Positions 5,021 to 54,579 of a stretch of 64,000 nucleotides of DNA are shown here, piece after piece. The stretch's first letter is position 1. The number at the start of each line of letters is the position of its first letter. Under the pieces are notes generated by a model. The model was given only the letters and a program-made list of their open reading frames with translations. It did no database searches and was not told the DNA's origin. The stretch comes from Candidatus Omnitrophota bacterium (GTDB taxonomy: Bacteria > Omnitrophota > Gorgyraeia > Zapsychrales > Zapsychraceae), in the NCBI GenBank assembly GCA_015233495.1, contig JADFXQ010000001.1, positions 68,045 through 132,044 on the forward strand. Direction: 5' to 3'. The position numbers and the translations under genes are program-made.

Positions 5021-5437
5021 ATGGAAACGTACATTTCTTTGTCGAAAAAATGGACCGCGCAGCAAAAAGAAATCTGGGCGGTGATTGAAGACCATTGGCA
5101 ATGTCTCGTCGAAGGAAAGACCGAACAATTCATCCAATACATTCACCCCGACTTTGTCGGATTCGGCCATGAAAGCCCTTACCCGGTGGATTTCGGCTGG
5201 CTGAAAGACTGGGTTGGTTTTTGGTCAAAAAGCACAAAATTTCTCACCCACGGCGTGCGGCCTATCCACATTGTTATTCACGACAATATCGCAATCGTGC
5301 AATACTGTCTGTTTACTATCGTTAAACACGATGTCAGCGCGCCGACCAGCTCCATCCGGCGTTACACCATGACCTGGAAAAAAACAAACGGTAAATGGCA
5401 AGTCATTGCCAGCCATAATAATCTGCAAGGGGAGTAA
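5021..5437 (+). CDS. SnoaL-like / NTF2-fold domain protein (DUF4440-like)
   Basis: 138 aa, with a WxxxxxxG...H...D NTF2-like pattern. One of few plus-strand genes, with an SD-like AAAGGAG upstream. Confidence 0.5.
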   Translation: METYISLSKKWTAQQKEIWAVIEDHWQCLVEGKTEQFIQYIHPDFVGFGHESPYPVDFGWLKDWVGFWSKSTKFLTHGVRPIHIVIHDNIAIVQYCLFTIVKHDVSAPTSSIRRYTMTWKKTNGKWQVIASHNNLQGE

Positions 5438-5438
5438 T

Positions 5439-5551
5439 ACAGGACACAAGTATTCTAAATTTTAATTCTAGTTTTTAATAGAAAATCAGGCAGACACAAC
5501 AAATTTTTAAATAAATGTAAACGACATTACTTGTGTCTTGTGTCTTGTGTC
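5439..5551. repeat. GACACAAG/CTTGTGTC terminal-inverted-heptamer intergenic element, copy 1 (forward)
   Basis: Left end is acaGGACACAAGta. Core is aaaatcaggcagacacaacaaattttt...aaatgtaaacgacat. Right end is taCTTGTGTCTTGTGTCTTGTGTC. Lies between convergent genes. Confidence 0.8.
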
Positions 5552-5555
5552 TTTT

Positions 5556-6326
5556 TTAAAACCGCACTACCACCCCAGTCACAATTCCACACGCTTCGTT
5601 TTTATTGACAATCGGACTTTTCTTGATATTGGTTCCCAGGAATTCCAGGTCGAAACGGGTAACTAAAAAACACGTTTTCGACAACCCCATATTAAACCCG
5701 AGATTGACAAAAGGATTCCACGCGGCGTCGCCTTTATACGACGAACGCGACGCATTGGCTTCATAATCCCGCACGCCATAATAATAATCCACGAACATTT
5801 TGCTTTGCCAGGACGCGCCCAGGGACGGAACAATTTCAAAAAACGACCCTTTGAATTTTTTCGTCAAAGCCAGAACGCCTTCTTGCCCGCCGTAGACGTT
5901 CAACACATCCGTCGAAACTTCCACGCTTAAAAACAAATCTTCCCCCCACGGGATCGTCCGCTCGACCCGGCCGCCGGCTGCCAGGGAATTATGGCGGTCT
6001 TCCATGCCGGCAAAAGCTTTGGAATCATCCGCCTGATAACCCGTCAGCTGAGGCGACAAAAAAACATCCGCGCGCCAATCGTCATTTTCAAAAGCCACCC
6101 ATCCGCCTTTCAACCCCTGAATAAAAAAATTTCCCTGCCGCCATTTGATTATCGGAATCGGCGTCACTGACGGCTTCATGTCCTCATACGGCCGGAAAGC
6201 AGTATAAACCCCCATACCCGCCACATTAAATTCTCCCTTCTCCCGAGGCGCATCCTGCGCCCATCCGAGGTTTGCGCAGCATAACAGTGACAAGCAAAAT
6301 TCCATCACAAGTTTCCGTGACAACAT
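5556..6326 (-). CDS. mipA: MipA/OmpV family outer-membrane beta-barrel protein
   Basis: Signal peptide, alternating beta-strand pattern, and a C-terminal aromatic (..VVRF) typical of OMPs. Size and motifs resemble MltA-interacting protein. Confidence 0.55.
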   Translation of the reverse strand: MLSRKLVMEFCLSLLCCANLGWAQDAPREKGEFNVAGMGVYTAFRPYEDMKPSVTPIPIIKWRQGNFFIQGLKGGWVAFENDDWRADVFLSPQLTGYQADDSKAFAGMEDRHNSLAAGGRVERTIPWGEDLFLSVEVSTDVLNVYGGQEGVLALTKKFKGSFFEIVPSLGASWQSKMFVDYYYGVRDYEANASRSSYKGDAAWNPFVNLGFNMGLSKTCFLVTRFDLEFLGTNIKKSPIVNKNEACGIVTGVVVRF

Positions 6327-11141: not shown

Positions 11142-13394
11142 CTACCTCCCGGAAATTGACGTTGGAATCCCAATCGGAACAATCCGCAATATCATCCCCC
11201 GAACTCCGGAAAAATTACCTCTCTGAAATTCCGCGATCATCGCCGAGGTAAATTTTAAATCTATGCCCTGCCTCTCTCGCGTGACATCAACCGTGATATT
11301 AAAGTTAATCCCTCCGGGATTCATTCCCGCGAGCGGACTGGATAACACTTTGACATCCGCATTCTCCAATCGCGTCACTTCGCCATTTTTCAATTCCAAT
11401 TGCCGCCATTGAATCACAGAAACACCCTCCTCATGAACACGAGCAACTGTGTTTGACCGCATCGCAATACGCAAAGCGCTCATCTGAATCGCATGGCCAA
11501 AAAGAATGACCGTTTTGCCTCGCAGGTGGGTATCTTCGGCTATCTTCTTTAAAAAACGATACTGCCGCGCAATGAGGTCCAAATATCTTTCACCCCGGTT
11601 AAATGAAGCCAAAGCGCTCCCGGTGATATCATTCATGCCGGTTGTGCTCCCTCCCGGCCAAATACTCACACGTGTTGTTTCCATGTCTCCGGTCATCTTC
11701 CGGGGGGAAAGCCCAACCGACTGCATTTCTGCATGCAATGCTTCCGGCGGCTGCGCATAAGCAAAATGCGTCGCATCACCCATATCCATTTCATTGATGC
11801 CAGGTTCCACAGACACCGGAAGATTAACTCCCAACTCCCGCTTCACTAAATCCAAAAACGGCTGTGCCGTTTGTTGCGCACGTCGTAAACCCGAGGTGAT
11901 AACCACAACTTTCCCGGCAGCAATGTCGGCGCGATAGATATCGAACAATTGTTGACTTGTTTGTTGCGCCTGTTGCACTCCTTTGTCATTAAGAGAATCG
12001 AGAAACTCCTCATTTGCTTGCCCGTTTAAAACAAAATAGCGATTCGCATTCGTATGCCCGTGCCGGACCCCGACCAACTGAACGCCGCTCAGATCAACCC
12101 AAGGCTCGTCGGAAGTATAGGCGATTTCACCTTTTGTGTTGACCTGCAATTTACCATCAGTTGCGTTAACTGCTGTCCAACCTTGCATAGCCGGGCGAGT
12201 GGTCCCAACCGCCAACACAGATACCCGCGCGCGATCGCCGTCTTGACCGGATTTGTCCGTAGGAGAAGATGATCCAGTGATCGTTAAATTCTCTATGCCT
12301 AACCGCATATTTTCTCCGCCGGAAAAATATTGACGCGCAATAGTATCTTCACTCAACGGGTCTGTATCTTCTTTAATATAATTGAACACCCCTTTTTGGT
12401 AAGCCTGTAAGTATTGTTGATATATTTTCTCTTTCACCAAGGGATCATCTGTTAAAACGCCGCCGGTCTTCCCTTTATTACTGTACACTTGATTCAACAA
12501 CGCGTCTTTAAGCGCGATCTTATACCAAGAAGCCAGAATCATGCTATAAAACATCTGCCGTAGCGGAGCAAAATTTTTCCCTTCATTCACTTCCTTTTCA
12601 ATTTCGGGAATGATGATTTCTTTGACAGCCGCAGCAGCCATACTATGAGTTGAAATACGCGGCCGACGCTCAATATGAACCATACCGGTTCGTTCATCTT
12701 GGTCCCGCATTCTCAATCGGCCATCCGCCGCCAAAGCGGCATAATCTTCTTCTAACATTACCTTCAAATGGGAGCCCACAACAAAAGCCGTATGATCCCG
12801 TTCCCGAACCTTCGCATGCTCCGCGACAATCCAAACCTTATTGAATGTATCGACTGGAATATCAGTTGCCCCAAATTGCTTTTCCACCTTGGCATAGACC
12901 CGATCCCAAAAAGTCTTTCCTAATTGGCTATTAGGATACATCAATGACGCAGTCAATTGCTTCAAAATATAATCTTGTGCCAGCATATCCCGGCCAAGTA
13001 TTGTCTTCCCCAACTCCGCCGGAATGATTTTGTCCTTTTCGTATGGAGACAAATTTACCCAAAGATCATCTTCCTTGATCGTTAAAGCTGCTAAAAAATA
13101 TTTAATCAATTTCTGTGATTCTGTTTTGAACTCCGCGCTATCAATCTTGATCTGTGAGGAACCCGTATCCATAATAAAATCAAACAAAAGCGGGTTGTCA
13201 GCATGGATTTCAACGCCCTTCATGATAACCGGCATATAAGCTGGGTTGGAAAGAACCCTGGCTCCCGGCGCCGGCAAAAGCAAGGCCTGAGCCAAGGCCG
13301 CCGGAGAAAGCAGCCCGGAAAAAATAAATCCCCCAATGATCCCCACGCAGATCAATCGAAATATCAATGTCTTTTGGAATGTTTGCCTCTTCAT
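11142..13394 (-). CDS. large secreted protein: conserved N-terminal ~450-aa domain of unknown function fused to C-terminal histidine phosphatase (PGAM-family RHG) domain; paralog of 55163..57472
   Basis: Signal/anchor MKRQTFQKTLIFRLICVGIIGGFIFSGLL. N-domain LIKYFLAALTIKEDDLWVNLSPYEKDKIIP... is shared with the second paralog. C-terminal VGVRHGHTNANR has the RHG motif. Confidence 0.5.
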   Translation of the reverse strand: MKRQTFQKTLIFRLICVGIIGGFIFSGLLSPAALAQALLLPAPGARVLSNPAYMPVIMKGVEIHADNPLLFDFIMDTGSSQIKIDSAEFKTESQKLIKYFLAALTIKEDDLWVNLSPYEKDKIIPAELGKTILGRDMLAQDYILKQLTASLMYPNSQLGKTFWDRVYAKVEKQFGATDIPVDTFNKVWIVAEHAKVRERDHTAFVVGSHLKVMLEEDYAALAADGRLRMRDQDERTGMVHIERRPRISTHSMAAAAVKEIIIPEIEKEVNEGKNFAPLRQMFYSMILASWYKIALKDALLNQVYSNKGKTGGVLTDDPLVKEKIYQQYLQAYQKGVFNYIKEDTDPLSEDTIARQYFSGGENMRLGIENLTITGSSSPTDKSGQDGDRARVSVLAVGTTRPAMQGWTAVNATDGKLQVNTKGEIAYTSDEPWVDLSGVQLVGVRHGHTNANRYFVLNGQANEEFLDSLNDKGVQQAQQTSQQLFDIYRADIAAGKVVVITSGLRRAQQTAQPFLDLVKRELGVNLPVSVEPGINEMDMGDATHFAYAQPPEALHAEMQSVGLSPRKMTGDMETTRVSIWPGGSTTGMNDITGSALASFNRGERYLDLIARQYRFLKKIAEDTHLRGKTVILFGHAIQMSALRIAMRSNTVARVHEEGVSVIQWRQLELKNGEVTRLENADVKVLSSPLAGMNPGGINFNITVDVTRERQGIDLKFTSAMIAEFQRGNFSGVRGMILRIVPIGIPTSISGR

Positions 13395-13695: not shown

Positions 13696-14031
13696 CTATT
13701 GAGCTGAAAGAATCTCTTCAATGTATTTATTTAAACTATCGCCATTACGCAGGGCTTTAATCGTTATGGTCTTGTGAAGATCCGGGGAAATTCTTAACGG
13801 TATCTTCCCGGAAAATTTCCGGGACATAATCTGCGGCGGAATCGGCCGGCCGTCTTTTAACAAAATAGCTTCCATCTCCGCGGCCACGGCGCATAACTCT
13901 CGGAACACTTTAGATTCATCTTTTCCGTGCACCCCCCCTAAAAACAGACCCGGCGCCGTCCCAATATAGCATTGGTCCTCATCCGACCATTCCACGACTT
14001 TTAAATAAGCGGGCCTTTTTTGTTTAATCAT
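13696..14031 (-). CDS. hicB: HicB family antitoxin
   Basis: HicB-like RNaseH-fold N-terminal region and a C-terminal RHH-like tail. Start MIKQKRP overlaps the hicA stop. Confidence 0.65.
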   Translation of the reverse strand: MIKQKRPAYLKVVEWSDEDQCYIGTAPGLFLGGVHGKDESKVFRELCAVAAEMEAILLKDGRPIPPQIMSRKFSGKIPLRISPDLHKTITIKALRNGDSLNKYIEEILSAQ

Positions 14032-14222
14032 TTCTGCGCCTCCCACAAAGCAATTTTAACCGCTTGCTCTTGATACGGTAAAGCATCATCGCCCAATTGA
14101 CCGGAAATAACAACCGCCGGGTGTAGCGGGTGAACAAACTTCCGATGACTGCCCTTGCCGCCCCGGTTAGCAAACCCCATTTTTTCCAAATCCCTGATCA
14201 ATTCGCGAATTTTGCGTAGCAT
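14028..14222 (-). CDS. hicA: HicA family mRNA interferase toxin
   Basis: 64 aa, ...GFANRGGKGSHRKFVHP... The GSH-containing YcfA/HicA motif. Confidence 0.7.
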   Translation of the reverse strand: MLRKIRELIRDLEKMGFANRGGKGSHRKFVHPLHPAVVISGQLGDDALPYQEQAVKIALWEAQK

Positions 14223-24039: not shown

Positions 24040-24062
24040 ATTTTATCATGTCCACACGATAC

Positions 24063-24175
24063 CAGGACACAAGTCATGTCGTTTACAATTTTTATAAATT
24101 TTGTTGTGTTTGCCTGATTTTATCTTAAAAAATAAGATTAAAATTTACAATACTTGTGTCCTGTGTCCTTGTGTC
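24063..24175. repeat. GACACAAG/CTTGTGTC element, copy 2 (reverse orientation)
   Basis: Core aaattttgttgtgtttgcctgatttt is the reverse complement of the copy-1 core. The ends are ccaGGACACAAGtc ... taCTTGTGTCCTGTGTCCTTGTGTC. Confidence 0.8.
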
Positions 24176-24178
24176 TTT

Positions 24179-26271: not shown

Positions 26272-26389
26272 TACACAAGACACAAGTATTCTGCTCGAAT
26301 GTCCTGCTTATTTAAGGCAAACTCAGGCAAACACAACAAAATATTTTCAAATGCCTAAACAACTTGACTTGTGTCCTGTGTCTTGTCTC
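26272..26389. repeat. GACACAAG/CTTGTGTC element, copy 3 (forward)
   Basis: Left end ataCACAAGACACAAGta. Core ctcaggcaaacacaacaaaatattttcaaatgcctaaa. Right end CTTGTGTCCTGTGTCTTGTCTC. Confidence 0.8.
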
Positions 26390-27356
26390 ACTCAAATAAA
26401 AATCTTCCCAATTCCTCTTTTTTCGGCAAGGGGCTTTGCTGGGCAAAAAGGAATGCCGCCTCAATTTCCCCGTCCACTGCTTCGTCGATGGCGGCAATGT
26501 CCGCCTCCGGCGCCAAATTCTGCGCTAAAATTTTGTTCTTGAATATTTCGACCGGACACCGCCTAAAAGCATCATCCAAATCTTCTGACCGGCGGTAATT
26601 TTCCCGGCCCGGATCGCCGATTCCATTATGACCGCGCCAGCGTTGGCAAAGGCATTCTAAAAAAACCGGGCCTTGACCCGAACGCGCCGCGGCAATCGCT
26701 GTTCCCGCCTGTTCATAAACTGATAGCAAATCCGAACCATCCGCCTGATACGCGGGAATATCAAAGGCGCCCGCCCGCGCCGTCAACCGCTCATTCACCT
26801 GCCGGGCAGACAACCGCGAACAGACCGCGTAATAATTATTTTCACAAACAAATACCACCGGCAGTTTGCGCAAAGCCGCCAGATTCAAACTCTCGAAAAA
26901 CACTCCTTCTTCCATCGCGGCGTCGCCGAAAAAAGTCACCGCAACCCGGTTATCGCCGCGATACCACGAGGCGAACGCCGCGCCGACCGCGTGCGGAATG
27001 CTTCCCGCCACAATGGCCGAAGATCCCATCAGACCCACTTGCGGATCAACCAAATGCATGGAACCGCCGCGGCCCGCCGCGCACCCGGTTTCCTTGCAAT
27101 ACAATTCCGCGATCATTGCCGGCAGATCGCCGCCCTTGGCCAAATAATGACCATGACTGCGATGATTGCTGAAAACATAATCTTCGCGTTTTAAATGGCT
27201 GCAAACCCCGACGGAAACCGCCTCCTGTCCCAAGGACAAATGCACGGGCGTCTTCATCTCATCACGCGGATAAAGTTCTTCGATTTTCTGTTCCACTTTC
27301 CGAATACGGATAAGCGAACGATACAGCCGGATAATTTGTTCTGCGGTCAAGTTCAT
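26388..27356 (-). CDS. TPP-dependent dehydrogenase E1 component, alpha subunit
   Basis: TPP-binding GDAAMEEGVFFESLNLAA...VCENNYYA motif. Confidence 0.8.
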   Translation of the reverse strand: MNLTAEQIIRLYRSLIRIRKVEQKIEELYPRDEMKTPVHLSLGQEAVSVGVCSHLKREDYVFSNHRSHGHYLAKGGDLPAMIAELYCKETGCAAGRGGSMHLVDPQVGLMGSSAIVAGSIPHAVGAAFASWYRGDNRVAVTFFGDAAMEEGVFFESLNLAALRKLPVVFVCENNYYAVCSRLSARQVNERLTARAGAFDIPAYQADGSDLLSVYEQAGTAIAAARSGQGPVFLECLCQRWRGHNGIGDPGRENYRRSEDLDDAFRRCPVEIFKNKILAQNLAPEADIAAIDEAVDGEIEAAFLFAQQSPLPKKEELGRFLFE

Positions 27357-31123: not shown

Positions 31124-33235
31124 TTAAATCTCTTGTCCAGCCTTGCGCTTGGCAAACCCGGTGCCGCCGCCGACATTGATAGACGGAAACGCCTTAAGCC
31201 GGAAAATCAACATGATTTCGCTGCCCTCGCCCTTTTTGTTAGTCAGCGAAGTTTCCACGGTCCAGCTGTGCAAATCCCGCGTGACCGTGTAGCCCTGTTC
31301 CTTAAGTTTCGAAGCTTTCAAATCAAACCGGTCAAACACATGGAGCGTCCATTTTTTATTCACATCCCAATGCAGGTCGGTAGTCACCTGATCATCCGCG
31401 TCCCGGGCCCAGCGTTTCCCCACATCGAGTCCCCAGCCTTTGCCGTTAATGTACGCATCGAAATTCACCGCACTCCAATGTCTCTGCCGCGGATCATATC
31501 CGGAATCAAAATACAAAGTAAGCCAATCCACCGGACGAAAATCAATGTTCGAAGTAATCGTGTCAAACCCGCCTTTGCGCGGGTCTTCTTTCAAATGAAA
31601 ATCCGTGCCCAGCACCGCGCGCAGCAGTTCGACCGTCTTGTCGTTCCGTTTCGTCTGCAATTTATTTTCTAAAGAAAAATTGATGTTATGAATATTCGTG
31701 ATCGTGTCCACGCTGTCAAAGGCATCCAGCGTGGTGGCTGGCACAGTTGGCTTGTTCTGAAAGTCATAGGAAACGGTTGGCGTGATGATATGGCGCAGCC
31801 GGTTGATTTCCAGTCCATAGGCGTTCATCTGCGCTTCATAAATACGATAAAATTTGGTGCTGACACTTGCCCCGGTTTTAAACACGGCGCGCGTGATATT
31901 GGAGCGGGAAATGTCGTGGGTGCGGCTGTAGTATGTTTCTTCCTGCCCGACATACGGCTTAAATTCGAAAATATGGACCTTCATCGGATACGATAAAATG
32001 TTATCCGTATCCAAACGCATGGTCTTCAAACGACTGACGCTCGGCGCGGCCTGTTCATTGGCCAAATTGGAATAGGTCGTCGCGTTTCTCCAATAAAGCC
32101 CCGAATCCCCCAGCTCAAAATTGGCCATGTCATAACGGACTTCCGGCAGACGCTCGACCTGACTGGTAAACGTATTGACCCGTTTATCCGCCCGCAGGCT
32201 CAAAATCCCTTTCGACAATGTCCGCGTCAAAAGAAAAAACGTCTGCGGATTGCTGTCGCGGTCATACTCCCTTTGGAAAAAATCTTTCAAAAAACGGCTG
32301 TCGCTTAATTTATAAAACTGCATCACCGCGTTGGTCTGCTTATCCATCTGCCATTGATGCCGCCATTCGACCTTATACCGGGTATGTTGAATTTTATAAA
32401 CATCCGTCTTATCCGTGGTGGTTAAGGATTTGTCAGTAAGATAATAGGTGCGCAATAAACCGTTTCCCAAGGAAGGGGTTTTATAAGCGGTATCCAAACC
32501 ATAGCCCATGCCGATCAATTGCCGGTAATCGGCGTGCACAACCGCTTTCAAATGCTCGTCCCCGAAATAGCGCCACTGGCCCAGTAAAAACGCTCCCCAG
32601 CGCTTTTTATAACCGGGAATAACTTCCCACTGGGGTTTGGGATTTTGTAAATTTTGCGAAATCTTCGGAATATACATCAAAGGCACGTTGCCGACTTTCA
32701 TCAGAACATTGCGGGCGATAACCTTATCCTGCGGATAAATTTCGATCTGATCGGCAAACATCCGATATTCCGGATCATCCCAGTCGGAAGTGGTCATATA
32801 ACCTTTAGACATCACCAACTTATCCCCCTGCAGTTTGGTAATCAAATCCGTATATCCGTAAAGCGGGGGCATAAAAATTTTCGCTTGGCGGAATTCGCCT
32901 TTTTGCGTCGCAAAGTTATACTCCAGTTCATTGCCGGCAACCTCGCCTTTTTTGGTGCGCAAACGAACATGGCCTTTCGCGTGCGCATTTTTCGTTTTTT
33001 GCTCAAAAGTGACCATGTCGCAGGTCAGTGTCGAATCCTGATAAATAATTTTCACATTGCCCTTGGCGGTGATCAGACTTCCATCCACCGAATATTCCAC
33101 AGTGTCCCCATTCAGCTCTACGGAAGACGCGGGCGAAGAGACCGCGGCAAAACCTCTCCCCGTCCCGGCTAAAACAACCGACAAAAGCATCAATACCGCT
33201 TTTAATGGAAAATTCCAGGTTTCGCGCTTTGTCAT
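31124..33235 (-). CDS. lptD: LPS-assembly protein LptD (OstA family)
   Basis: Signal peptide. N-terminal OstA/LptA-like repeats (GNVKIIY...GHVRL...) and a ~550-aa C-terminal beta-barrel. Confidence 0.7.
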   Translation of the reverse strand: MTKRETWNFPLKAVLMLLSVVLAGTGRGFAAVSSPASSVELNGDTVEYSVDGSLITAKGNVKIIYQDSTLTCDMVTFEQKTKNAHAKGHVRLRTKKGEVAGNELEYNFATQKGEFRQAKIFMPPLYGYTDLITKLQGDKLVMSKGYMTTSDWDDPEYRMFADQIEIYPQDKVIARNVLMKVGNVPLMYIPKISQNLQNPKPQWEVIPGYKKRWGAFLLGQWRYFGDEHLKAVVHADYRQLIGMGYGLDTAYKTPSLGNGLLRTYYLTDKSLTTTDKTDVYKIQHTRYKVEWRHQWQMDKQTNAVMQFYKLSDSRFLKDFFQREYDRDSNPQTFFLLTRTLSKGILSLRADKRVNTFTSQVERLPEVRYDMANFELGDSGLYWRNATTYSNLANEQAAPSVSRLKTMRLDTDNILSYPMKVHIFEFKPYVGQEETYYSRTHDISRSNITRAVFKTGASVSTKFYRIYEAQMNAYGLEINRLRHIITPTVSYDFQNKPTVPATTLDAFDSVDTITNIHNINFSLENKLQTKRNDKTVELLRAVLGTDFHLKEDPRKGGFDTITSNIDFRPVDWLTLYFDSGYDPRQRHWSAVNFDAYINGKGWGLDVGKRWARDADDQVTTDLHWDVNKKWTLHVFDRFDLKASKLKEQGYTVTRDLHSWTVETSLTNKKGEGSEIMLIFRLKAFPSINVGGGTGFAKRKAGQEI

Positions 33236-34185
33236 TTGAATTTTGTCATTTGAATTTTGTCATTTGTCATTAATAAACCCGCTCCGATCACGCCCGCGTC
33301 ATCGCCTAATTTCGCCGCCGCCACTTTAACTAACTGCGCGGGAACTCCCATTGCCCGTTCGCGGATCGTGGCGGCAATCGCTGTTTTCATAAAACGCAAA
33401 CTTTTCGCGACCCCGCCGCCTATCACAATAAGACGCGGATTTAATAAATTAACCGCCCCGACTAAACCATACCCAACCACTGTGCCGACCCCATACCAAA
33501 AATCCAAAGCCCGGCTATCGCCCCGCGCTGCTAAGGCGTAAACATCTTCTAATGTGATATCTTGGCGTTTAAAAAAATCCCGCGCTCCAGCCAAGAGAGT
33601 GGCATTGCCGACATAACGCTCAAAACAAGCCCGCCCGCCGCAATTGCACGCCGGCCCGTTTTCATTGAGCGGCACATGACCCAGCTCGCCCGCGCAAAAC
33701 CCTTCGCCGCGATACAATTTGCCCTCTAAAATCAAACCCGCGCCCACCCCCGTACCCAGCGTCATACAAATCATGTTCCGGTAGCCCCGTCCGGCTCCGA
33801 ATTTCGCCTCCGCCAGAGCCATACCATTGACATCATTATCTACCCGGACCGGTAACCCTAATTTTGCTTCTGCCAATTTCTGCAAAGGCACATTTTTCCA
33901 CCCAAAAATATTCGTCAAAGTCAAAACCACGCCCCGGTCAAAATCCACCAAACCCGGCACGCCAAAACCCACGCCTTGCACCTGATCTTGACGCAGTCCC
34001 CGCGCCGCTAAAAGCCCGGCCACACTTTCGACCACCGCTTGAATCAGACATTCTTTATCCGCGGCCACCTCGGCGGTCTTGATCCGGCCTCGGGCCACAA
34101 TCTCCCCGGCATCCGAGACGATACCCAGTTTAATATTCGTGCCGCCAATATCAACGCCAATCACATAATTTTTCTTATACATCAT
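33232..34185 (-). CDS. ROK family sugar kinase (glucokinase-like)
   Basis: VIGVDIGGTNIKLGIV, and an EAGHxP ROK motif including a CxCGxxGC zinc motif. Confidence 0.75.
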   Translation of the reverse strand: MMYKKNYVIGVDIGGTNIKLGIVSDAGEIVARGRIKTAEVAADKECLIQAVVESVAGLLAARGLRQDQVQGVGFGVPGLVDFDRGVVLTLTNIFGWKNVPLQKLAEAKLGLPVRVDNDVNGMALAEAKFGAGRGYRNMICMTLGTGVGAGLILEGKLYRGEGFCAGELGHVPLNENGPACNCGGRACFERYVGNATLLAGARDFFKRQDITLEDVYALAARGDSRALDFWYGVGTVVGYGLVGAVNLLNPRLIVIGGGVAKSLRFMKTAIAATIRERAMGVPAQLVKVAAAKLGDDAGVIGAGLLMTNDKIQMTKFK

Positions 34186-38211: not shown

Positions 38212-38228
38212 AAGAGTAATGACAAAAT

Positions 38229-39071
38229 TCAAATCACAAAATATCCGATCAATTTTGCCAGCGTGGACTTCATTTCTTTGCGCGAAACAATCATATCGAT
38301 CAGGCCGTGCGCCATCAAAAATTCCGAACGCTGAAATCCTCCCGGCAGCTTCTGCCGGATCGTTTGTTCAATAACCCGCGGCCCGGCAAAACCCACCAAA
38401 GCCCGCGGCTCAGCGATAATTATATCGCCCACCCCGGCGAACGAAGCCATAATCCCGCCCATGGTCGGATCAGTCAATACGGAAATGTAAAGCAATCCGG
38501 ATTCCTGATGCTTGCCTATTGCCGCGCAAGTTTTCGCCATCTGCATCAAAGAAATCGCGCCCTCATACATCCGCGCCCCGCCGCCAGACCCCGAAACAAT
38601 AATCATTGGCAAACGCTGCCGCGTTGCCGCCTCAACCGCGCGGGTTATCCGCTCCCCAACCACTGATCCCATTGACCCCATAATGAACCGGGAATCCGTA
38701 ACCCCCAAAACCACGTCACGTCCTTCTATCTTGCCTTGCCCGGTGATCACCGCGTCCTTCAACCCGGTCAGCGCTTGATCGCCTTCAATTTTCTGCTGAT
38801 ACGTTTTCGGGCCTTTAAAAACCAACGGATCCCGGGAAGTCAACGCCGCGTCCATTTCCGTAAAAGTGTTTTCGTCCATGAGCAGACTGACCCTCTGCGG
38901 CGCGGTCAGGACGATATGATAATTGCATTTTGGACAAACATTCTCGTTAATGTCCAAATCTTTTTTATGGTTGGCCGCAGAACATTCCGGACATTTATGC
39001 CATAACCCGGCCGGAATCTCTTTTTTCTTTACGGTCACCAACGTAAATTTACTGCGTCCAAAAAGAGCCAT
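38229..39071 (-). CDS. accD: acetyl-CoA carboxylase carboxyltransferase beta subunit
   Basis: N-terminal zinc ribbon CPECSAANHKKDLDINENVCPKCNYH and a carboxyltransferase domain. Confidence 0.9.
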   Translation of the reverse strand: MALFGRSKFTLVTVKKKEIPAGLWHKCPECSAANHKKDLDINENVCPKCNYHIVLTAPQRVSLLMDENTFTEMDAALTSRDPLVFKGPKTYQQKIEGDQALTGLKDAVITGQGKIEGRDVVLGVTDSRFIMGSMGSVVGERITRAVEAATRQRLPMIIVSGSGGGARMYEGAISLMQMAKTCAAIGKHQESGLLYISVLTDPTMGGIMASFAGVGDIIIAEPRALVGFAGPRVIEQTIRQKLPGGFQRSEFLMAHGLIDMIVSRKEMKSTLAKLIGYFVI

Positions 39072-40959: not shown

Positions 40960-41409
40960 TTATTTTGTAAAATGTGTTTTTAATTTATGCTTTTGAGCGG
41001 CAGCTAACAACGCCCCATCGTAGGTCAATAACGGGATATGCCCTAATCGCGCAGACAAATCCAAGTAGGCGGCGTCATAAGTTGTAAGATGATAAGTTCG
41101 TGCGATATCAAGAACGGAAGTGTTTAACCAGCCGGGTGACGATATTGCGTCAATAAACAACGGAAGCCGGCTGGCCATGTCGAGAATTCTTTCTTGAGTA
41201 TGGCGATTTAAGCGTCCTTTATTTTCTGCCATAACCAAGATATTCATGAATTCATAAACAAAAATAGACGGGACGTGGATTTTGATTCTATCTATTTTGT
41301 CAAGCGCCCCAGAATGCTCCCCGGCAGACTCATCCGGAAGAAACCATGAAGCCACAACATTAGCGTCAACGACAACAGATGATATTAAGCTCGACCCTGT
41401 CTTTTCCAT
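40960..41409 (-). CDS. vapC: PIN-domain toxin (VapC-like)
   Basis: VVDANVVASWF...(D) acidic PIN residues, YDAAYLDLS, 149 aa. Paired with the upstream small antitoxin. Confidence 0.65.
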   Translation of the reverse strand: MEKTGSSLISSVVVDANVVASWFLPDESAGEHSGALDKIDRIKIHVPSIFVYEFMNILVMAENKGRLNRHTQERILDMASRLPLFIDAISSPGWLNTSVLDIARTYHLTTYDAAYLDLSARLGHIPLLTYDGALLAAAQKHKLKTHFTK

Positions 41410-41627
41410 TGATTAAGCTCTTCGATGGTGATCTTGTCTACGGATTGGCGGAGTTCTTTAATTTCTTTTATCAAAGATTTTGAACGGCATAAAAAACTTT
41501 CAGTTACAGGCACTATTTTGGCGACCGGCACATTCTTTTTCATGATGACGTGTTCTTCTCCTCGCATCACCTCTTTGATAATTCCCGACAAATGGCTTCT
41601 TGTTTCTAAAATTCCGCTCGTGGTCAT
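41385..41627 (-). CDS. Phd/YefM-type antitoxin (VapB-like)
   Basis: 80 aa, with the typical Phd N-terminus (TSGILETRSHLSGIIKEV...). Start MTTSG is preceded by a GGAGGG SD. Overlaps vapC by ~25 nt. Confidence 0.6.
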   Translation of the reverse strand: MTTSGILETRSHLSGIIKEVMRGEEHVIMKKNVPVAKIVPVTESFLCRSKSLIKEIKELRQSVDKITIEELNQWKRQGRA

Positions 41628-41643
41628 ATTACGTCCCTCCATT

Positions 41644-41684
41644 CTGTACATCTAAAGTGTACAGTTAAATATTGTTCATGTCAA
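41644..41684 (-). promoter_or_regulatory. vapBC promoter with overlapping palindromic operator
   Basis: On the minus strand: TTGACA-17 bp-TACACT. The perfect inverted repeat CTGTACA-N7-TGTACAG (41644..41664) overlaps the -10. Confidence 0.5.
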
Positions 41685-41759: not shown

Positions 41760-42035
41760 TCATTTACATCCCGGGCAGCAGCCTTCGGCTTTAGCTGGGC
41801 AGGTTTTTTCGGGAGATTTCGGGGACGGGGCTTCGCATTTTGGCGCGTCTTTCTTTTTGTAATCGGTTTCGTAGAAACCTTTGCCTTTAAAAATCACGCC
41901 GCCTCCGGTGCCAATGAGCCGGATAAGCTTGTTCTTGCCGCATTTCGGGCATTTTTTTAATTTTTCATCCGTCATAGACTGCCAGGCTTCTAATCCATGG
42001 CCGCAGGCCGTGCATTCATATTGATATGTTGGCAT
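41760..42035 (-). CDS. FmdB family zinc-ribbon protein
   Basis: MPTYQYECTACGH...CPKCG is the FmdB/CxxC-x17-CxxC N-terminus, followed by a Cys-rich tail. Confidence 0.7.
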   Translation of the reverse strand: MPTYQYECTACGHGLEAWQSMTDEKLKKCPKCGKNKLIRLIGTGGGVIFKGKGFYETDYKKKDAPKCEAPSPKSPEKTCPAKAEGCCPGCK

Positions 42036-42054
42036 AGGTCGATCCTTTTATTAA

Positions 42055-42181
42055 AGACACACGCCACAAGTAAGGTCATTTAGGCATTTGAAATATTTTG
42101 TCGTATGTGCCTGAGTATCAATATTTCAACAAGACTTTCAAACAGAATGTTTGTGTCTTGTGTCCTATCCTTTGTCCTGTC
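42055..42181. repeat. GACACAAG/CTTGTGTC element, copy 4 (reverse; closest to copy 3)
   Basis: aGACACACGCCACAAGta ... aggcatttgaaatattttgtcgtatgtgcctgag (reverse complement of the copy-3 core) ... TTTGTGTCTTGTGTCCTATCCTTTGTCCTGTC. Overlaps the dnaJ stop. Confidence 0.75.
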
Positions 42182-43329
42182 TATTTAAACACCTTCTTTA
42201 ACTTATCTTTAAACGATTTTTCACCAATATCTTCCCCGCTCGCTTTCGCAAAGTCTTCCAGAGCGCGTTTTTGGTCCGCGCTTAATTTCTGCGGGACGTC
42301 GATCATCATTTTCGCGTAAAGATCTCCGGTGCCGCCCTGATGCACATCCGGCATGCCTTTGCCTTTGAGCCGAAAGACCTTGCCGCTCGGCGTGCCTGCC
42401 GGGATTTTCATTTCCACCTCGCCGGCCAAAGTTTCAACCGCGACCTCGCCGCCAAACACGGCTTTGACAAACGGGATCGGCAGTTCCATATATAAATCGT
42501 TGCCCTCTCGCTTGAATATGTCGTGCTCTAGCGCATGGACATAAAGATAAAGATCGCCCGGCCCGGCCGCGCCGACCTCGCCTTCATGCCTGACCCGCAG
42601 CCGCGACGAATTATCCACACCCGGCGGGACATTCACGTCGATATTTCGGGTGATTTTGACCGCGCCCTGGCCGCCGCATTTCGGACAATATTCGGTGATC
42701 GTCCGTCCCTGGCCGTGACACGCCGGACAGGTCTGCTGCATCCGGAAAAATCCGCTCGACATCATAACCGCGCCTTGACCGCCGCAGGTCGGACACGTTT
42801 TGAGGGATTTGCCGTCTTTCGCGCCTGTGCCTTCGCAATCTTGACAAAATTCATGCCGAGGGACCTGAATTTTCCTGGCAACACCTTGATAAGCTTCCTC
42901 CAGCGTCACCTCAATCTCATATTGAATGTCCCGGCCGCGGCTCTGCCGGCGCGGACGCCCGCCCCCGGAAGACCGGCCGCCGCCGAACATCTCAAAAATC
43001 GAATCCGCGTTGCCGCCTCCGCCGCCGAATATAGAACTGAAAATATCGTTAAACTCGCCAAAATTCGCGCCGCGGAAAATATCCTCCGTCGTATATTGCT
43101 GATCAATCCCGGCGTGACCGTACTGATCATACATCTCCCGCTTCTTCGCGTCGGACAAAACGCCGTAGGCCTCGGAAATTTCCTTAAACTTCTCCTCCGC
43201 CGCTTTTTTCTCTTTCTCCTCAACTCGGTCCGGATGATAACGCAAAGCCAGCGACCGATAGGCCTTCTTGATCTGCGTAATATCCGCGTTCTTCTCGACA
43301 CCCAATATTTCGTAATAATCTTTTTTCAT
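42181..43329 (-). CDS. dnaJ: molecular chaperone DnaJ
   Basis: J-domain (YYEILGV...HPDR), G/F-rich linker, four CxxCxGxG zinc repeats. Start taken as [11 protein letters not shown]. Confidence 0.95.
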
Positions 43330-43349
43330 ATATTTTTGAAAGTCATAAA

Positions 43350-43487
43350 GACACAGGACACAAAGACATAAGATATGTTGCACACGTCATTTTAAAATTT
43401 TAATGTGTCTGTCTGATCATCCTTTAAAAAATAAAATACTAAATCACAACACTTGTGTCCTGTGTCTTTGTGTCTTGTGTCCTTGTA
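43350..43487. repeat. GACACAAG/CTTGTGTC element, copy 5 (reverse), between dnaK and dnaJ
   Basis: GACACAGGACACAAAGACATAAG ... core ... CTTGTGTCCTGTGTCTTTGTGTCTTGTGTCCTTGTa. This is the longest heptamer array. Confidence 0.8.
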
Positions 43488-43491
43488 ATCT

Positions 43492-45450
43492 TTATTTCTT
43501 CTCATCCTCCGCCCGAAAATCGGCGTCGATTACGTCATCCTTGCCGTCGCTCTTGCCGGATGAAGAATGATCATCCGCTTTTCCGGCATTCGGATGTCCA
43601 GCGCCCATATCCGGACCCGGACCAGCCTCGCCGCCCGGCGCCGCGCCAGCGCCCGCCGGCCCGCCTTGCGCCGCGGTCGCTTTATAAACTTCTTCCGCCA
43701 ATTTATGACTGGCTTTTTGCACAGCATCCATCGCGGATTTGATTTTTCCGGCGTCCTTGCTCTCGATCGCTTGCTTGAGCGCCGCGAGCTCATTTTCCAC
43801 ACTCGACTTATCACCTCCGGAAATCTTGTCGCCATAATCTTTCAGCGCCTTTTCCGTTGAATAAAGCAAGGTGTTCGCTTGATTATGCATTTCCGCTTCG
43901 TCGCGGCGTTTTTTGTCTTCATCGGCGTATTGTTCCGCCTGTTTCACCATCTTATCAATCTCTTCCTTCGACAATTTCGTCGGAGCCGTAATCCGGATCG
44001 ACTGTTCCTTGCCGGTCCCGCGGTCTTTCGCAGCCACATGAACAATCCCGTCCGTGTCAATGTTAAAGGTCACTTCCACCTGAGGAACGCCGCGCGGCGC
44101 CGGCGGAATTCCCACCAGATCAAACCGGCCCAATTCCGTATTGTCATTAGCCATTTGCCGCTCGCCCTGCAGAACCCGGATCGTCACCGCAGTCTGATTG
44201 TCATCCGCGGTTGAAAACACCTGGCTCTTTTTGCTCGGGATCGTCGTATTGCGATCAATCAATTTCGTAAACACCCCGCCCAAGGTTTCAATCCCCAAAG
44301 ACAACGGCGTTACGTCGAGCAAAAGAACTTCTTTCGCTTCGCCGCGGATGATCCCGCATTGCACAGCCGCGCCCAAGGCCACGCATTCCATAGGGTCAAT
44401 CCCGCCTTCGATCTTCTGCCCGATTTCCTTTTCCACGAACTTCTGGACAATCGGCATGCGCGTCGGACCGCCGACGAGAATCACCCGGTCCACCTTCACG
44501 TCACTCCCCAATTTCGCGGAGGCGTCTTTGATGGCCTGATGAATTGGGCCGCGGCAGCGCGCCACAATCGGCTCCACCAGACTTTCCAATTTGGCCCGTT
44601 CGATTTTCATAGTCAAATGTTTCGGACCCGTGGCATCCGCGGTCACGAACGGCAGATTGATGTCAGTCGAAACCGTGCTGGACATTTCCACCTTGGCCTT
44701 TTCCGCCGCTTCACGCAAGCGTTGAAACGCCATCTTGTCGCCTTTAAGGTTAATGCCGCTCTCTTTGCGGAATTCCTCGGTGATATAATCAATCAGGACA
44801 TTATCCATGTCCGTGCCGCCCAGCAAATTATCCCCACTCGTCGACAAAACCTCGAAAGTCGAGGCCTTGTGGCCTTCGTCCCAACCCATTTCCAGGATCG
44901 TGACATCGAGTGTGCCGCCGCCAAAATCAAAAACCATGATCTTTTGCTCTTTGCCGACTTTATCCAAACCATAGGCCAGACACGCGGCAGTTGGTTCATT
45001 GATGATGCGCAGCACTTTCAATCCTGCGATCTCCCCCGCGTCTTTCGTAGCTTGCCGCTGATTGTCGTTGAAATACGCTGGCACTGTGATGACCGCTTCA
45101 TCCACGGTATCGCCCAGATATTTCTCCGAATCCGCCTTGATTTTTTGCAAGATAAACGCGCTGATCTGTTGCGGCGTGAATTCCTTATCAAAGACCTTGA
45201 ACTTCTCGCCGGTCCCCATCTTGCGTTTGGCCGCGTATACGGTCCCTTCCGAATTAACCGCGGCCTGACGCCGCGCCGGTTCGCCGACCAAACGCTGGCC
45301 ATCTTTCGTGAACGCCACGAATGACGGAAATGCCTTGCCCGAAGCCACACCCGCGCCTTCGGCCGACGGAATAATCACCGGACGCCCGCCTTCCATCACC
45401 GCGGCCGCTGAATTCGAAGTCCCTAAATCAATCCCAATTGCTCTAGCCAT
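43492..45450 (-). CDS. dnaK: molecular chaperone DnaK (Hsp70)
   Basis: [22 protein letters not shown], and full-length Hsp70 similarity. 652 aa. Confidence 0.97.
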
Positions 45451-46082: not shown

Positions 46083-46204
46083 ACCGCGCGCTAAAAGTTG
46101 GTGAGGAAATGCTTTCGGGATCGTTCTGAGGCCGTTCTTACCTCTTTTTTCCAGAAAAAGGCCGAAGGCAGAGCCCGAAAACATTTCCTCACCAACCCGC
46201 GCGC
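46083..46204 (-). promoter_or_regulatory. long imperfect inverted repeat (>30-bp stem) in hrcA-grpE intergenic region
   Basis: CGCGCG..TTGGTGAGGAAATGCTTTCGGG ... CCCGAAAACATTTCCTCACCAA..CGCGCG. Mismatches become G-U pairs only in the minus-strand (mRNA) sense. Confidence 0.5.
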
Positions 46205-51644: not shown

Positions 51645-51680
51645 TTGACAATGCGCAGCAAATGTGTATATTAATACACA
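51645..51680 (+). promoter_or_regulatory. mazEF-like promoter with palindromic operator
   Basis: TTGACA (51645-50), a 16-nt spacer, then TGTGTATATT extended -10. The perfect palindrome TGTGTAT-atta-ATACACA (51663..51680) overlaps the -10. SD AGGAGG is 8 nt before ATG 51695. Confidence 0.55.
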
Positions 51681-51694
51681 AGGAGGTGTGTATT

Positions 51695-51916
51695 ATGGTG
51701 CGCATGAATATAACAATGCCGGATCGGATAGCTCAAAAACTATCTAACATAAACAATAAAAGCCGTTTTATCGCCGAAGCCGTCGAGGAAAAAATCGACA
51801 CCCAAGAAAAACAAATACTTTTTGCGGCTTTGTCTCAAGAATACAAACAAATGTCAATGCGGCAAAAAACATTCATCAAAGATTGGCAAAAAATTGAAAC
51901 CGAGGGCTGGGAATGA
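51695..51916 (+). CDS. ribbon-helix-helix (CopG/MazE-like) antitoxin
   Basis: 73 aa, MVRMNITMPDRIAQKL... RHH N-terminus. The stop overlaps the toxin ATG (ATGA). Confidence 0.55.
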   Translation: MVRMNITMPDRIAQKLSNINNKSRFIAEAVEEKIDTQEKQILFAALSQEYKQMSMRQKTFIKDWQKIETEGWE

Positions 51917-52260
51917 AAAATCCGCATCCCCAACGCGGAGAAATTTGGGTCGTTCAATTGGATCCCGCGATCGGCTCCGAAATCAAAAAAACCAGACCCG
52001 CCTTAATTATTTCAAACAACGCGCATAATCGTTTCATGGGCCATTTGACAGTTTTACCCATCAGCGACGCGGGTGAGAAAGTTTATTTAGTCGAGGTATT
52101 CCTCCCCGCCGGCATAGCAAACTTAACAAAAAATTCCAAAATCCGCTGTCATCAAATCCGAACCATTGACAAATCCCGTTTTATTAAACCGATAGGTTCC
52201 ATTCCACAAATGTATTGGGAATCTATTGAAAAAGCCCTGCGAATCCATTTAAATTTTTAG
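51913..52260 (+). CDS. MazF/PemK family endoribonuclease toxin
   Basis: GEIWVVQLDPAIGSEIKKTRPALIIS is the classic PemK/MazF N-terminus. 115 aa. Confidence 0.8.
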   Translation: MKNPHPQRGEIWVVQLDPAIGSEIKKTRPALIISNNAHNRFMGHLTVLPISDAGEKVYLVEVFLPAGIANLTKNSKIRCHQIRTIDKSRFIKPIGSIPQMYWESIEKALRIHLNF

Positions 52261-53578: not shown

Positions 53579-54469
53579 TTATTTCTTCAACAGCTTCTTA
53601 TTCTGCGGAATTGTAAGATAATTTTCCCGACTGACAACCAAGTCTCCGCTTTTTTGTTCCAATTCTTTTCTGGCATTGCCGGCCACACTTCCACCGTCAA
53701 TGGCTGCCTGCTTATTCGAATCAAAACCCTGGGAATTACGGCCGCGGGCGATTTTTGTCGTTGATGCTTCCCCAAGCATGGAGAAAATCAATTCCAAATC
53801 CGTCATATGATCCCGCAAATTCTGACGACTCAATCCCTTATATTTTTTATACTCGGAAGGGGTCATCCCAAATGCCGCTTTTGAAATTTCTGCAGTTAAA
53901 ATCGCGTAATTCTGCTGGTCTTTAATACCTCGTTTGTTCCATTCATCCGTCAATTCCTCCCTAATGGCAATACCGCGCACGCGTTTTTCAATCCACTCCT
54001 CCGAATATCCTTTTGCTTTATAAATCGCCCTTAAGCGTTTCATAGCCAGTTCGGGGTCTTCAATTTCCTGAACGCGCTCATAACCAACTTTAGCCAACCA
54101 GCGTTTAAATGGTTCTGCTTTGGGCGACGGTATCGTCTGAATAATACGAAATAAGCTTTCAGTATTAGCACAGTCTGTCAAATATTCCTTGCCGTCAGAT
54201 GCCATTAATTTCAGTTGTCCGATTTTTTCGGACACCTCAACATACCCTTCTTGAATCAATTTTTTCTTTAAATCGCTCCAATATTTCCTGGGTCTTGCTG
54301 TTTCAGTGAGCGCCTCCACAACATCAATAACCGAAAACCACCATTCATTCTGATGAATCGTTTTCCTAACCTGCTTTCCTTTAAAAACAGCAATTTTGGT
54401 TACACTGATTTCATTGCGCATCTCCGCCTCCCCCCATCCAAAACGATTCAAAAATATCAACCACAACAA
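53579..54469 (-). CDS. Bro-N domain protein, DNA-damage-inducible protein D (DinD)-like
   Basis: Bro-N-like N-terminus (VFKGKQVRKTIHQNEWWFSVIDVVEAL). The C-terminal region parallels E. coli DinD (...AILTAEISKAAFGMTPSEYKKYKGLSRQNLRDHMTDLEL...). Confidence 0.55.
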   Translation of the reverse strand: MLWLIFLNRFGWGEAEMRNEISVTKIAVFKGKQVRKTIHQNEWWFSVIDVVEALTETARPRKYWSDLKKKLIQEGYVEVSEKIGQLKLMASDGKEYLTDCANTESLFRIIQTIPSPKAEPFKRWLAKVGYERVQEIEDPELAMKRLRAIYKAKGYSEEWIEKRVRGIAIREELTDEWNKRGIKDQQNYAILTAEISKAAFGMTPSEYKKYKGLSRQNLRDHMTDLELIFSMLGEASTTKIARGRNSQGFDSNKQAAIDGGSVAGNARKELEQKSGDLVVSRENYLTIPQNKKLLKK

Positions 54470-54496
54470 GCTTAAAGATTATATCAGCTCATTTCC

Positions 54497-54579
54497 TCAT
54501 GCACAAAACAACATCTTATTATGCACAAATTGACATGACTTCATGCACAAAACAGCAAAAAATTACGCACAAGTTGACA
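54497..54579. repeat. four direct 17-mer repeats T(C/T)A(T/C)GCACAA(A/G)(A/T)(C/T)(A/G)(A/G)CA spaced 21-23 bp upstream of the dinD-like gene
   Basis: tcATGCACAAAACAACA, ttATGCACAAATTGACA, tcATGCACAAAACAGCA, ttACGCACAAGTTGACA at 54497, 54518, 54541 and 54563. Confidence 0.6.

Follow-up and report, generated by a model that had tools for sequence, protein, structure and literature searches.

A dispersed family of intergenic elements with inverted heptamer arrays, possibly MITE-like and of foldback type, in an Omnitrophota genome

A 64,000-nucleotide stretch of DNA from a Candidatus Omnitrophota bacterium (contig JADFXQ010000001.1, positions 68,045 to 132,044 of the forward strand), called the window below, was analyzed for a small repeated element, one copy of which occupies the spacer between dnaK and dnaJ. 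All results given for the window refer to these 64 kb of host DNA. Read in one orientation, the element consists of (AAGACAC)n, an AT-rich core and (GTGTCTT)n. An initial annotation had placed five such copies in the window, dispersed in both orientations, strictly between genes, and built of inverted tandem heptamer arrays around a core. Reading of the intervals bore out the number, places and orientations of the copies, and the layout was found in all five, with a unit AAGACAC/GTGTCTT of 7 nt and sometimes 8 nt. Open reading frame (ORF) and Pfam analyses agreed with the named gene neighbors and with the intergenic positions, each copy filling the whole gap between its neighbors. The boundaries also stand, except that c4 and c5 reach slightly further than annotated, to about 42054-42183 and 43339-43488. 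The features are as follows.

c1, 5438..5555, plus strand (canonical orientation): left unit CAGGACACAAG at 5440-5450, core at 5451-5529 (79 nt), right array (CTTGTGT)x3 at 5530-5553 (plus strand); flanked by the stop codons of the convergent DUF4440 (5021-5437, plus strand) and MipA (5556-6326, minus strand) genes
c2, 24050..24178, minus strand (canonical on minus): in plus-strand reading, degenerate units at 24050-24062, a unit at 24063-24073, core at 24074-24152 (79 nt) and array CTTGTGTCCTGTGTCCTTGTGTCTTT at 24153-24178; from an epimerase gene (stop at 24179) to a radical-SAM/B12 gene (start at 24039)
c3, 26272..26389, plus strand (canonical on plus, antisense to the flanking genes): left units at 26272-26286, core at 26287-26367 (81 nt), right array at 26368-26389 abutting the E1alpha stop codon (26388-26390); from E1alpha to E1beta (start at 26255) of pyruvate dehydrogenase E1
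c4, 42054..42183, minus strand (canonical on minus): in plus-strand reading, units at 42054-42070, core at 42071-42149 (79 nt) and a degenerate array at 42150-42183 that overlaps the dnaJ stop codon (42181-42183); from dnaJ to a Zn-ribbon gene (start at 42035)
c5, the copy first flagged, 43339..43488, minus strand (canonical on minus): in plus-strand reading, array at 43347-43372, core at 43373-43451 (79 nt) and array at 43452-43486, with the longest arms and a stem of ~33 bp; from dnaK (stop at 43492-43494) to dnaJ (start at 43329)
Most conserved internal motif, TCAGRCA-N-AYAC-NN-Y-AAAWT: for example 5486..5505, plus strand, in c1

Sequence, fold and gene context of the five copies

A profile of the five copies was searched against the window with nhmmer. 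Exactly five full-length matches were obtained, with E values from 1.7e-37 to 4.4e-34, and the remaining signals were only reverse-strand echoes from the palindromic ends of the same copies. The octamer GACACAAG occurs 12 times in the window against 0.63 expected; all 12 occurrences fall within the five copies, and this number was reached in none of 100 shuffles. A degenerate pattern of core and end matched all five copies and none of 100 shuffles. With a size of 115-150 bp, no ORF, and five copies in 64 kb that include both orientations, the elements have the small, dispersed and non-coding character of MITEs (transposable elements of the miniature inverted-repeat type). The presence of one core at five unrelated loci and in both orientations demonstrates, at the level of sequence, that the copies share descent, and the family is a true non-coding repeat family with five homologous cores.

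Tandem Repeats Finder detected period-7 arrays at the copy ends, and the number of units per arm varies between 1 and 5. In a MAFFT alignment of the five copies the mean column identity was 68%, and the consensus core read ...TATTCTGATTT..AATCTTATTTTTTAA..GAAAATCAGGCA.ACACAACAAAATTTTTAAAA..CGTAAACGACAT.A. Despite near-invariant core lengths (79, 79, 81, 79 and 79 nt in c1 to c5, cut between the innermost units), pairwise core identity was only 51-84%, and two subfamilies were apparent, c1/c2/c5 and c3/c4. The cores contain 19-35% GC compared with ~50% for the window. For the most conserved internal motif, the distance to each array is constant across the five copies; in c1 and c5 the motif includes a third unit, direct and GACACAA-like. 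Pairing of this unit with the 3' arm as a switch was considered and rejected, the arrangement not being conserved in c4 and c5. An integration host factor site and a sigma-54 promoter in the central motif were only partial matches by eye.

Single-sequence folds paired the two arrays in every copy, as terminal inverted repeats (TIRs) of a MITE would, with stems of 8 to ~33 bp; most copies had z-scores between -2.9 and -5.8. A consensus fold of the five by RNAalifold predicted a terminal array-array stem of 12 pairs that loops out the 79-nt core. No internal conserved structure was predicted in this analysis, its covariation term was unfavorable, and no compensatory changes were found in the terminal stem. 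A hairpin AGGCA/TGCCT is present only in the c3/c4 subfamily. Fold stability showed no consistent bias toward the sense strand. As a separate observation, the 8-nt unit junctions in the 5' arms of c2, c4 and c5 (24153-24178, 42150-42183 and 43452-43486, minus-strand reading) create the motifs ACAAGGA/CAGGA, similar to CsrA sites and to Shine-Dalgarno sequences; the stem would hide them. Neither c3 nor the Verrucomicrobiota arrays described below have the CsrA-like ACAAGGA motifs.

The genome is compact, with ~20 gaps >100 bp in the window, five of which are the elements. Four of the five copies lie between same-strand genes with short spacers, probably within operons, three of them sense to the operon and c3 antisense, so that they are probably co-transcribed with their neighbors. 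The order (AAGACAC)n...(GUGUCUU)n results from reading of either strand, and the stem would therefore form in the mRNA in both orientations of the element. At every copy the array on the side of the upstream gene starts 0-7 nt past the stop codon (on both sides for c1); between the opposite array and the next start codon there remain ~17-24 nt, just the ribosome-binding region. Scans for sigma-70 promoters and intrinsic terminators found no site common to the copies, and a general promoter-carrying or classical terminator role was therefore rejected.

Distribution in related genomes and metagenomes

The initial annotation had proposed a search of related genomes, and this was carried out with a mixed outcome: filled and empty sites could be compared, and no copy was found at the orthologous dnaK-dnaJ-Zn-ribbon sites or in species-representative genomes. 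A search with the DnaJ of the window returned a 100% identical protein of a Candidatus Omnitrophica metagenome-assembled genome, and the DnaJ that comes next is only 75% identical. The locus that encodes the latter (L004) has the gene order of the window, and its dnaK-dnaJ and dnaJ-Zn-ribbon spacers measure 54 and 98 bp and are without the element. Five further loci with 64-67% identical DnaJ (L068-L072) keep the gene order hrcA-grpE-dnaK-dnaJ-Zn_ribbon-DUF1015-accD, and profile and motif scans over ~20 kb of each detected no element. The spacers filled in the window are thus empty in L004 and L068-L072, as is looked for in a MITE. Because these relatives are only 64-75% identical in DnaJ, the empty sites show lineage-specific presence and not recent movement. 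The absence of the element from the orthologous spacers in all relatives examined fits gain by insertion; as far as these comparisons reach, the element at the dnaK-dnaJ-Zn-ribbon sites is a lineage-specific gain or was lost everywhere else.

Other repeats were seen in the same spacers. In L068, from a related member of the Omnitrophota, the dnaJ-Zn_ribbon spacer (the c4 site) holds five tandem ~50-nt repeats of unrelated sequence at 11147-11484, so that this spacer collects different repeats in different lineages. In the dnaK-dnaJ spacer of L069 (9889-10000), AAGGTAA x2.3 at the left end faces T-rich sequence with a period of 7 at the right end, which hints weakly at the array/inverted-array layout with another heptamer.

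Several database searches yielded chance matches or none. A scan of species-representative genomes with the core TCAGGCARACACAACAAAWT gave three matches, all by chance, inside coding regions and without arrays. The core-plus-end pattern that matches all five copies had zero matches in the metagenome collection of the Joint Genome Institute. A single match without arrays in viral contigs was judged to be chance, and BLAST of c2 against plasmids and phages gave no match. Rfam had no match in the window at gathering thresholds. A permissive Rfam search with the five copies returned only the plant microRNA hairpin MIR7504 at chance level (E 0.13; score 25 bits, gathering score 83), and identity with an Rfam RNA family was rejected.

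A different result was obtained with a pattern that ignores the core (GACACARGACACAAG, 65-95 nt, CTTRTGTC). It matched 62 metagenome loci in a collection of unstated size, where we expected a handful by chance. The loci are clearly non-random, since the arrays run far past the search anchors, up to 28 units. Each has a left array, a short center and an inverted GTCTT array, and unit variants include AAGACGC, AAGACTC, AAGACCC, AAGACTTG and AAGACATC. The loci are intergenic and closely bounded by ORFs, in hosts of 33-69% GC. One GC-rich locus, L059, belongs to the Verrucomicrobiota, its MoxR being 83-85% identical to proteins of Luteolibacter and Akkermansiaceae. The best profile match, L008/L056, represents a second Omnitrophota lineage. 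Hosts were identified for these two lineages only among the 62 loci. The terminal arrays are thus not peculiar to the window family, and the same architecture occurs in another Omnitrophota lineage and in Verrucomicrobiota. The window core was shared by none of the 62 loci, whose centers are unrelated; core matches among them were the same locus resampled, and the window alone has one core at several loci. A 21-kb region of the cultured Luteolibacter yonseiensis contained no arrays. Recurrent neighbors across the 62 loci were only ABC transporters and other housekeeping genes.

In the window copies and the wider loci inspected, arrays start 0-7 nt after a stop codon and end ~5-25 nt before the next start codon. 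Outside the search anchors, GTCTT was the pentamer most often recurring at a spacing of 6-9 nt (20 of 50 non-redundant loci, compared with at most 12 for other rotations). On these counts the constant part of the unit is AAGAC/GTCTT, followed by 2-3 free positions. The overlap of variant units was 0.05 within elements and 0.15 between elements, and the variants build higher-order tandem blocks within an arm that differ between the arms. Mirror symmetry between the arms, expected of a selected perfect hairpin, was rejected, as the arms differ at the variable unit positions.

Turnover of the arrays was followed at two orthologous spacers.

Verrucomicrobiota MoxR-DUF58 spacer: L059 10499-10660, L077 2953-3170, L079 1580-1602
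Omnitrophota lexA-recO spacer: L008 655-785, L073 1881-2051, L076 4520-4618

In the MoxR-DUF58 spacer, L059 and L077 (MoxR 85% identical) have foldback arrays of 155-190 nt that begin immediately at the stop codon. The two elements are homologous at the right-hand end but have different dominant units (AAGACAC/GC/TTG versus AAGACAG). The spacer of L079, a closer relative of L059 (91%), is 23 nt long and has no array. A CAATA stands on either side of the L059 element, and L079 has this sequence once. The L059/L079 pair looks like an insertion with a 5-bp duplication, or like a precise excision between duplicates. In the lexA-recO spacer, both L008 and the outgroup L073 carry arrays at both ends. 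L076 is the sister of L008 (91-93% identical in three proteins, with 80-88% to L073) and has a homologous center with both arrays missing. On this comparison arrays and center are separable, and a one-piece MITE, with core and TIRs moving together, does not predict the pattern. Array length also differs between near-identical loci (L040 and L051 versus L063), as expected for slippage.

Known repeat systems and possible origins of the family

The inverted pairs of GGGAATC arrays in Xanthomonas are the closest described parallel. These are tandem heptamers with conserved and variable positions, in 2 to >20 units, whose length varies between relatives (PMC4692102, Rehm et al. 2015). About 90% are intergenic, near the end of the upstream ORF and often between same-strand genes; ~40% occur as two convergent (inverted) arrays able to form stem-loops, and presence at the same genes is not conserved between species (PMC4692102). 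The window family fits this description in its tandem heptamers, convergent pairs, intergenic position and proximity to the upstream ORF end (PMC4692102). However, the Xanthomonas unit is G-rich and has been discussed as quadruplex-forming, whereas AAGACAC/GTGTCTT has no G tracts. The Xanthomonas hosts are Gammaproteobacteria, and no locus-dispersed conserved core such as that of the window family has been reported there.

Bacterial MITEs (Correia/NEMIS, RUP, Nezha and ERIC-like elements) share with the window family a size of 100-150 bp, non-coding AT-rich sequence, TIRs and many dispersed copies in both orientations. They likewise sit in intergenic spacers, including those inside operons, where they are co-transcribed and form long hairpins. 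In contrast to the variable-length tandem heptamer arrays seen here, their TIRs are of unique sequence, and they have a defined target duplication and usually an identifiable parent insertion sequence (IS). No similarity to any described MITE family was detected, and no target-site duplication or parent IS was found in the window. Long TIRs of short tandem sub-repeats, with the number varying by copy and arm and the center variable or absent, are known from eukaryotic Foldback transposons (Drosophila FB, Galileo and Tetris). The likeness is architectural only, since these are eukaryotic elements of kilobase scale with known transposase superfamilies.

TAACTGA direct repeats are also heptameric; they occur in Beggiatoaceae, Cyanobacteria and Bacteroidetes, in intergenic positions, in 2 to 43 copies and with a patchy phylogenetic spread (PMC4679880, MacGregor 2015). 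Together with the cyanobacterial short tandemly repeated heptamers, these arrays resemble those of the window in adjoining coding-region boundaries. They differ in being almost all direct, unpaired and mostly just upstream of start codons, with another unit and no dispersed core. The repetitive extragenic palindromes (REPs) and the related BIMEs and REPINs are, like the window family, intergenic, hairpin-forming and numerous, and REPINs are inverted doublets ~100 bp apart. REPs, however, are GC-rich palindromes of 20-40 bp with a GTAG or CGTC head and a linked gene for a REP-associated tyrosine transposase (RAYT), whereas the window elements have AT-rich cores, no such head and arms made of heptamer arrays. 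REP/REPIN identity was rejected on the palindrome and head.

Several statements of the initial annotation can be judged on this basis. It had called the element MITE-like or REP-like and not a simple operator. The likeness to MITEs stands in part (size, TIRs, copy number, and filled and empty sites), that to REPs fails on the AT-rich sequence, the missing GTAG/CGTC head and the missing 20-40 bp palindrome, and the exclusion of a simple operator is supported. The exclusion of CRISPR likewise holds, as the units are 7-8 nt, head-to-tail and unspaced, unlike CRISPR repeats of 23-50 nt with unique spacers of similar length. The claim of novelty has to be narrowed. No Rfam, plasmid or phage match was found, and an Rfam hit had been named as the result that would remove it; inverted pairs of intergenic heptamer arrays are, however, known in Xanthomonas (PMC4692102). 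Our literature search found no description of AAGACAC arrays, of Omnitrophota repeats, or of heptamer hairpins in bacteria of the Planctomycetes-Verrucomicrobia-Chlamydiae group.

The reading we favor, with a probability of about 0.5, is that the five copies belong to one MITE-like family with ends of the foldback type, non-autonomous and specific to this lineage. Copying of a non-autonomous element accounts best for homologous cores that lie at unrelated loci, occur in either orientation and are lacking in relatives. The TIRs would themselves be short tandem arrays of the 7-8 nt unit AAGACAC/GTGTCTT. The copies may have spread through insertion into AT-rich spacers of very small length, at a stop codon or beside one. 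A trans-acting transposase encoded elsewhere in the genome may have done this. Alternatively, cores may have been copied ectopically between loci already bracketed by arrays; since the arrays are inverted repeats of each other, such copying is possible in either orientation. Array length would then drift by replication slippage, giving the 1-5 units per arm. The most likely consequence would be an effect on the processing or stability of the mRNA between cistrons, or on read-through.

Several observations weigh against this reading. For the target-site duplications proposed as a check in the initial annotation, no consistent direct repeat could be read at the five window copies. The CAATA duplication at L059 is a single 5-bp case and could be chance. 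At lexA-recO, L076 keeps the center without the arrays, so that arrays were gained or lost separately from it. The arms are not mirror images at the variable positions in the wider class, which suggests that what is kept is the pentamer AAGAC/GTCTT and not perfect pairing or one TIR sequence. No transposase, integrase or RAYT gene was found by Pfam among the ~65 window genes, whose content is housekeeping, and no neighboring gene recurred across the 62 wider loci apart from ABC transporters and other housekeeping genes. The copies are old, at 16-49% divergence, and give no evidence of current mobility. A core length held so nearly at 79 nt may point to a constraint, for which a purely selfish element would have no use. 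Finally, the reading draws on 64 kb of the host genome.

Growth of the arrays in place is possible as an alternative, though we consider it doubtful. Short inverted repeats at both ends of a spacer would expand into pairs of heptamer microsatellites by slippage and template switching between the arms; the arrays would not be transposon ends, and the shared core would have spread by ectopic gene conversion with the arrays as portable homology. Such growth accommodates the independent appearance and loss of arrays around the conserved center at lexA-recO, the length difference between L040/L051 and L063, and the higher-order blocks of unit variants that are unlike those of the other arm. It also agrees with the confinement of a multi-locus core to the window, other core matches being a resampled locus. 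A precedent exists in Xanthomonas, where convergent intergenic pairs near the upstream ORF make up ~40% of the GGGANTN arrays (PMC4692102), and heptamers are described, in the introduction of the TAACTGA report with reference to Mrazek 2007, as the commonest long simple sequence repeats in prokaryotes (PMC4679880). However, growth in place does not alone account for homologous cores at five loci that are unrelated, with either orientation represented, nor for the recurrence of AAGACAC in two phyla and in hosts of 33-69% GC. The L059/L079 pair, moreover, resembles clean insertion or excision of a whole foldback unit, and conversion tracts are not demonstrable with five diverged copies.

Selection by the host for an RNA clamp is an unlikely explanation. 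The clamp would be read by cold-shock-domain proteins (Csp), the 3' arm (GUCUUNN)n providing tandem heptameric Csp sites. When Csp is scarce, this arm would pair with (NNAAGAC)n and loop out the spacer; when Csp is abundant, the stem would be held open. Termination or read-through, RNase III processing, or the coupling of the flanking cistrons would thereby be tuned, in either orientation, because both strands read 5'-AAGAC array...GUCUU array-3'. Csp proteins of E. coli melt hairpins and act as antiterminators. CspB of Bacillus subtilis binds one heptanucleotide with the consensus 5'-GTCTTTG/T-3' and a strong preference for C3 and for T2, T4 and T6 (PMC1904285). The window unit GTCTTGT agrees with GTCTTTG/T at 6 of 7 positions (1-5 and 7), and the exact GTCTTTG is found in some loci (L024). 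The prominence of GTCTT in 20 of 50 non-redundant loci, the variable positions that follow the pentamer and are not strictly complementary between arms, the placement of arrays 0-7 nt after stops and ~5-25 nt before starts, and the core length held at 79-81 nt are all compatible with such a clamp. Csp, S1 and CsrA have also been proposed as readers of the TAACTGA arrays (PMC4679880). On the other side, the preferred T6 is missed, a 6/7 match in one of 14 registers/strands has a chance of ~0.03 by our estimate, the consensus comes from a Firmicute protein, and the window contains no csp gene. Unlike a needed regulator, the elements are missing from the same operons of close relatives; the lack of compensatory changes and of a consistent sense-strand bias in fold stability also speaks against a clamp. 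The GTCTT match to the CspB heptamer is a lead, not evidence of binding.

Growth in place and a Csp-read clamp can each coexist with the MITE-like reading. A speculative and quite unlikely combination would make AAGAC/GUCUU arrays orientation-independent RNA clamps across two phyla, Omnitrophota and Verrucomicrobiota. Their 3' arms would be Csp sites. Looping-out of an intercistronic spacer would then depend on the Csp level, set by temperature and growth state, and the window family would represent a mobile form that carries a core. Several copies of a small RNA gene with structure, or of a known cis-regulatory RNA (riboswitch, leader or small RNA), would suit the intergenic position, the conserved 20-nt central motif and the constant length, but are very improbable given the absence of an Rfam match other than the chance-level permissive one, a consensus fold limited to the terminal stem with an unfavorable covariation term, the lack of a consistent promoter or terminator, and the presence of copies in both orientations relative to the operons.

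To our knowledge, the window family is the first characterized interspersed repeat family in Omnitrophota. The phylum is known almost only from metagenome-assembled genomes, and the repeat could be used as a marker for strain typing and for assembly breaks. The array architecture was found in two Omnitrophota lineages and in one of the Verrucomicrobiota that was tested. Close relatives differ in having or lacking it, and in core operons (dnaK/dnaJ, pyruvate dehydrogenase E1, lexA/recO and MoxR/DUF58) it occupies exactly the stretch from a stop codon to the ribosome-binding site that follows. Should the arrays prove to be transposon ends, the eukaryotic foldback elements would have a counterpart in bacteria. 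If they are RNA modules read by proteins, they would offer a testable link between abundant RNA chaperones and expression ratios within operons. Either outcome would also be relevant to the excess in which heptamer repeats occur in bacterial genomes, for which there is no explanation so far.

Other repeats and toxin-antitoxin-like genes in the window

A second small dispersed repeat was seen at gene junctions, built from 7-nt half-units. Its 14-nt unit AATGACAAAATTCA (minus strand) is repeated 2.8 times at 33228-33271 across the overlap of the ROK stop and the LptD start. A 25-nt inverted copy of this repeat (24 of 25 bases) lies 5 kb away at 38218-38242, at the junction of the accD stop and an ABC-ATPase start. 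Four repeats with a period of 22 nt and the core ATGCACAAA are found at 54490-54577, just upstream of a Bro-N domain gene (53579-54469), and have an operator- or iteron-like look. The hrcA-grpE spacer contains at 46097-46196 an inverted repeat whose 40-nt arms are 80% complementary and enclose a loop of 20 nt; it is not a classical CIRCE element. Toxin-antitoxin-like genes were noted at three places: HicB at 13696-14046, a PIN domain protein with an overlapping 88-aa partner at 40960-41651, and a MazF/PemK toxin with an 84-aa upstream partner at 51662-52260.

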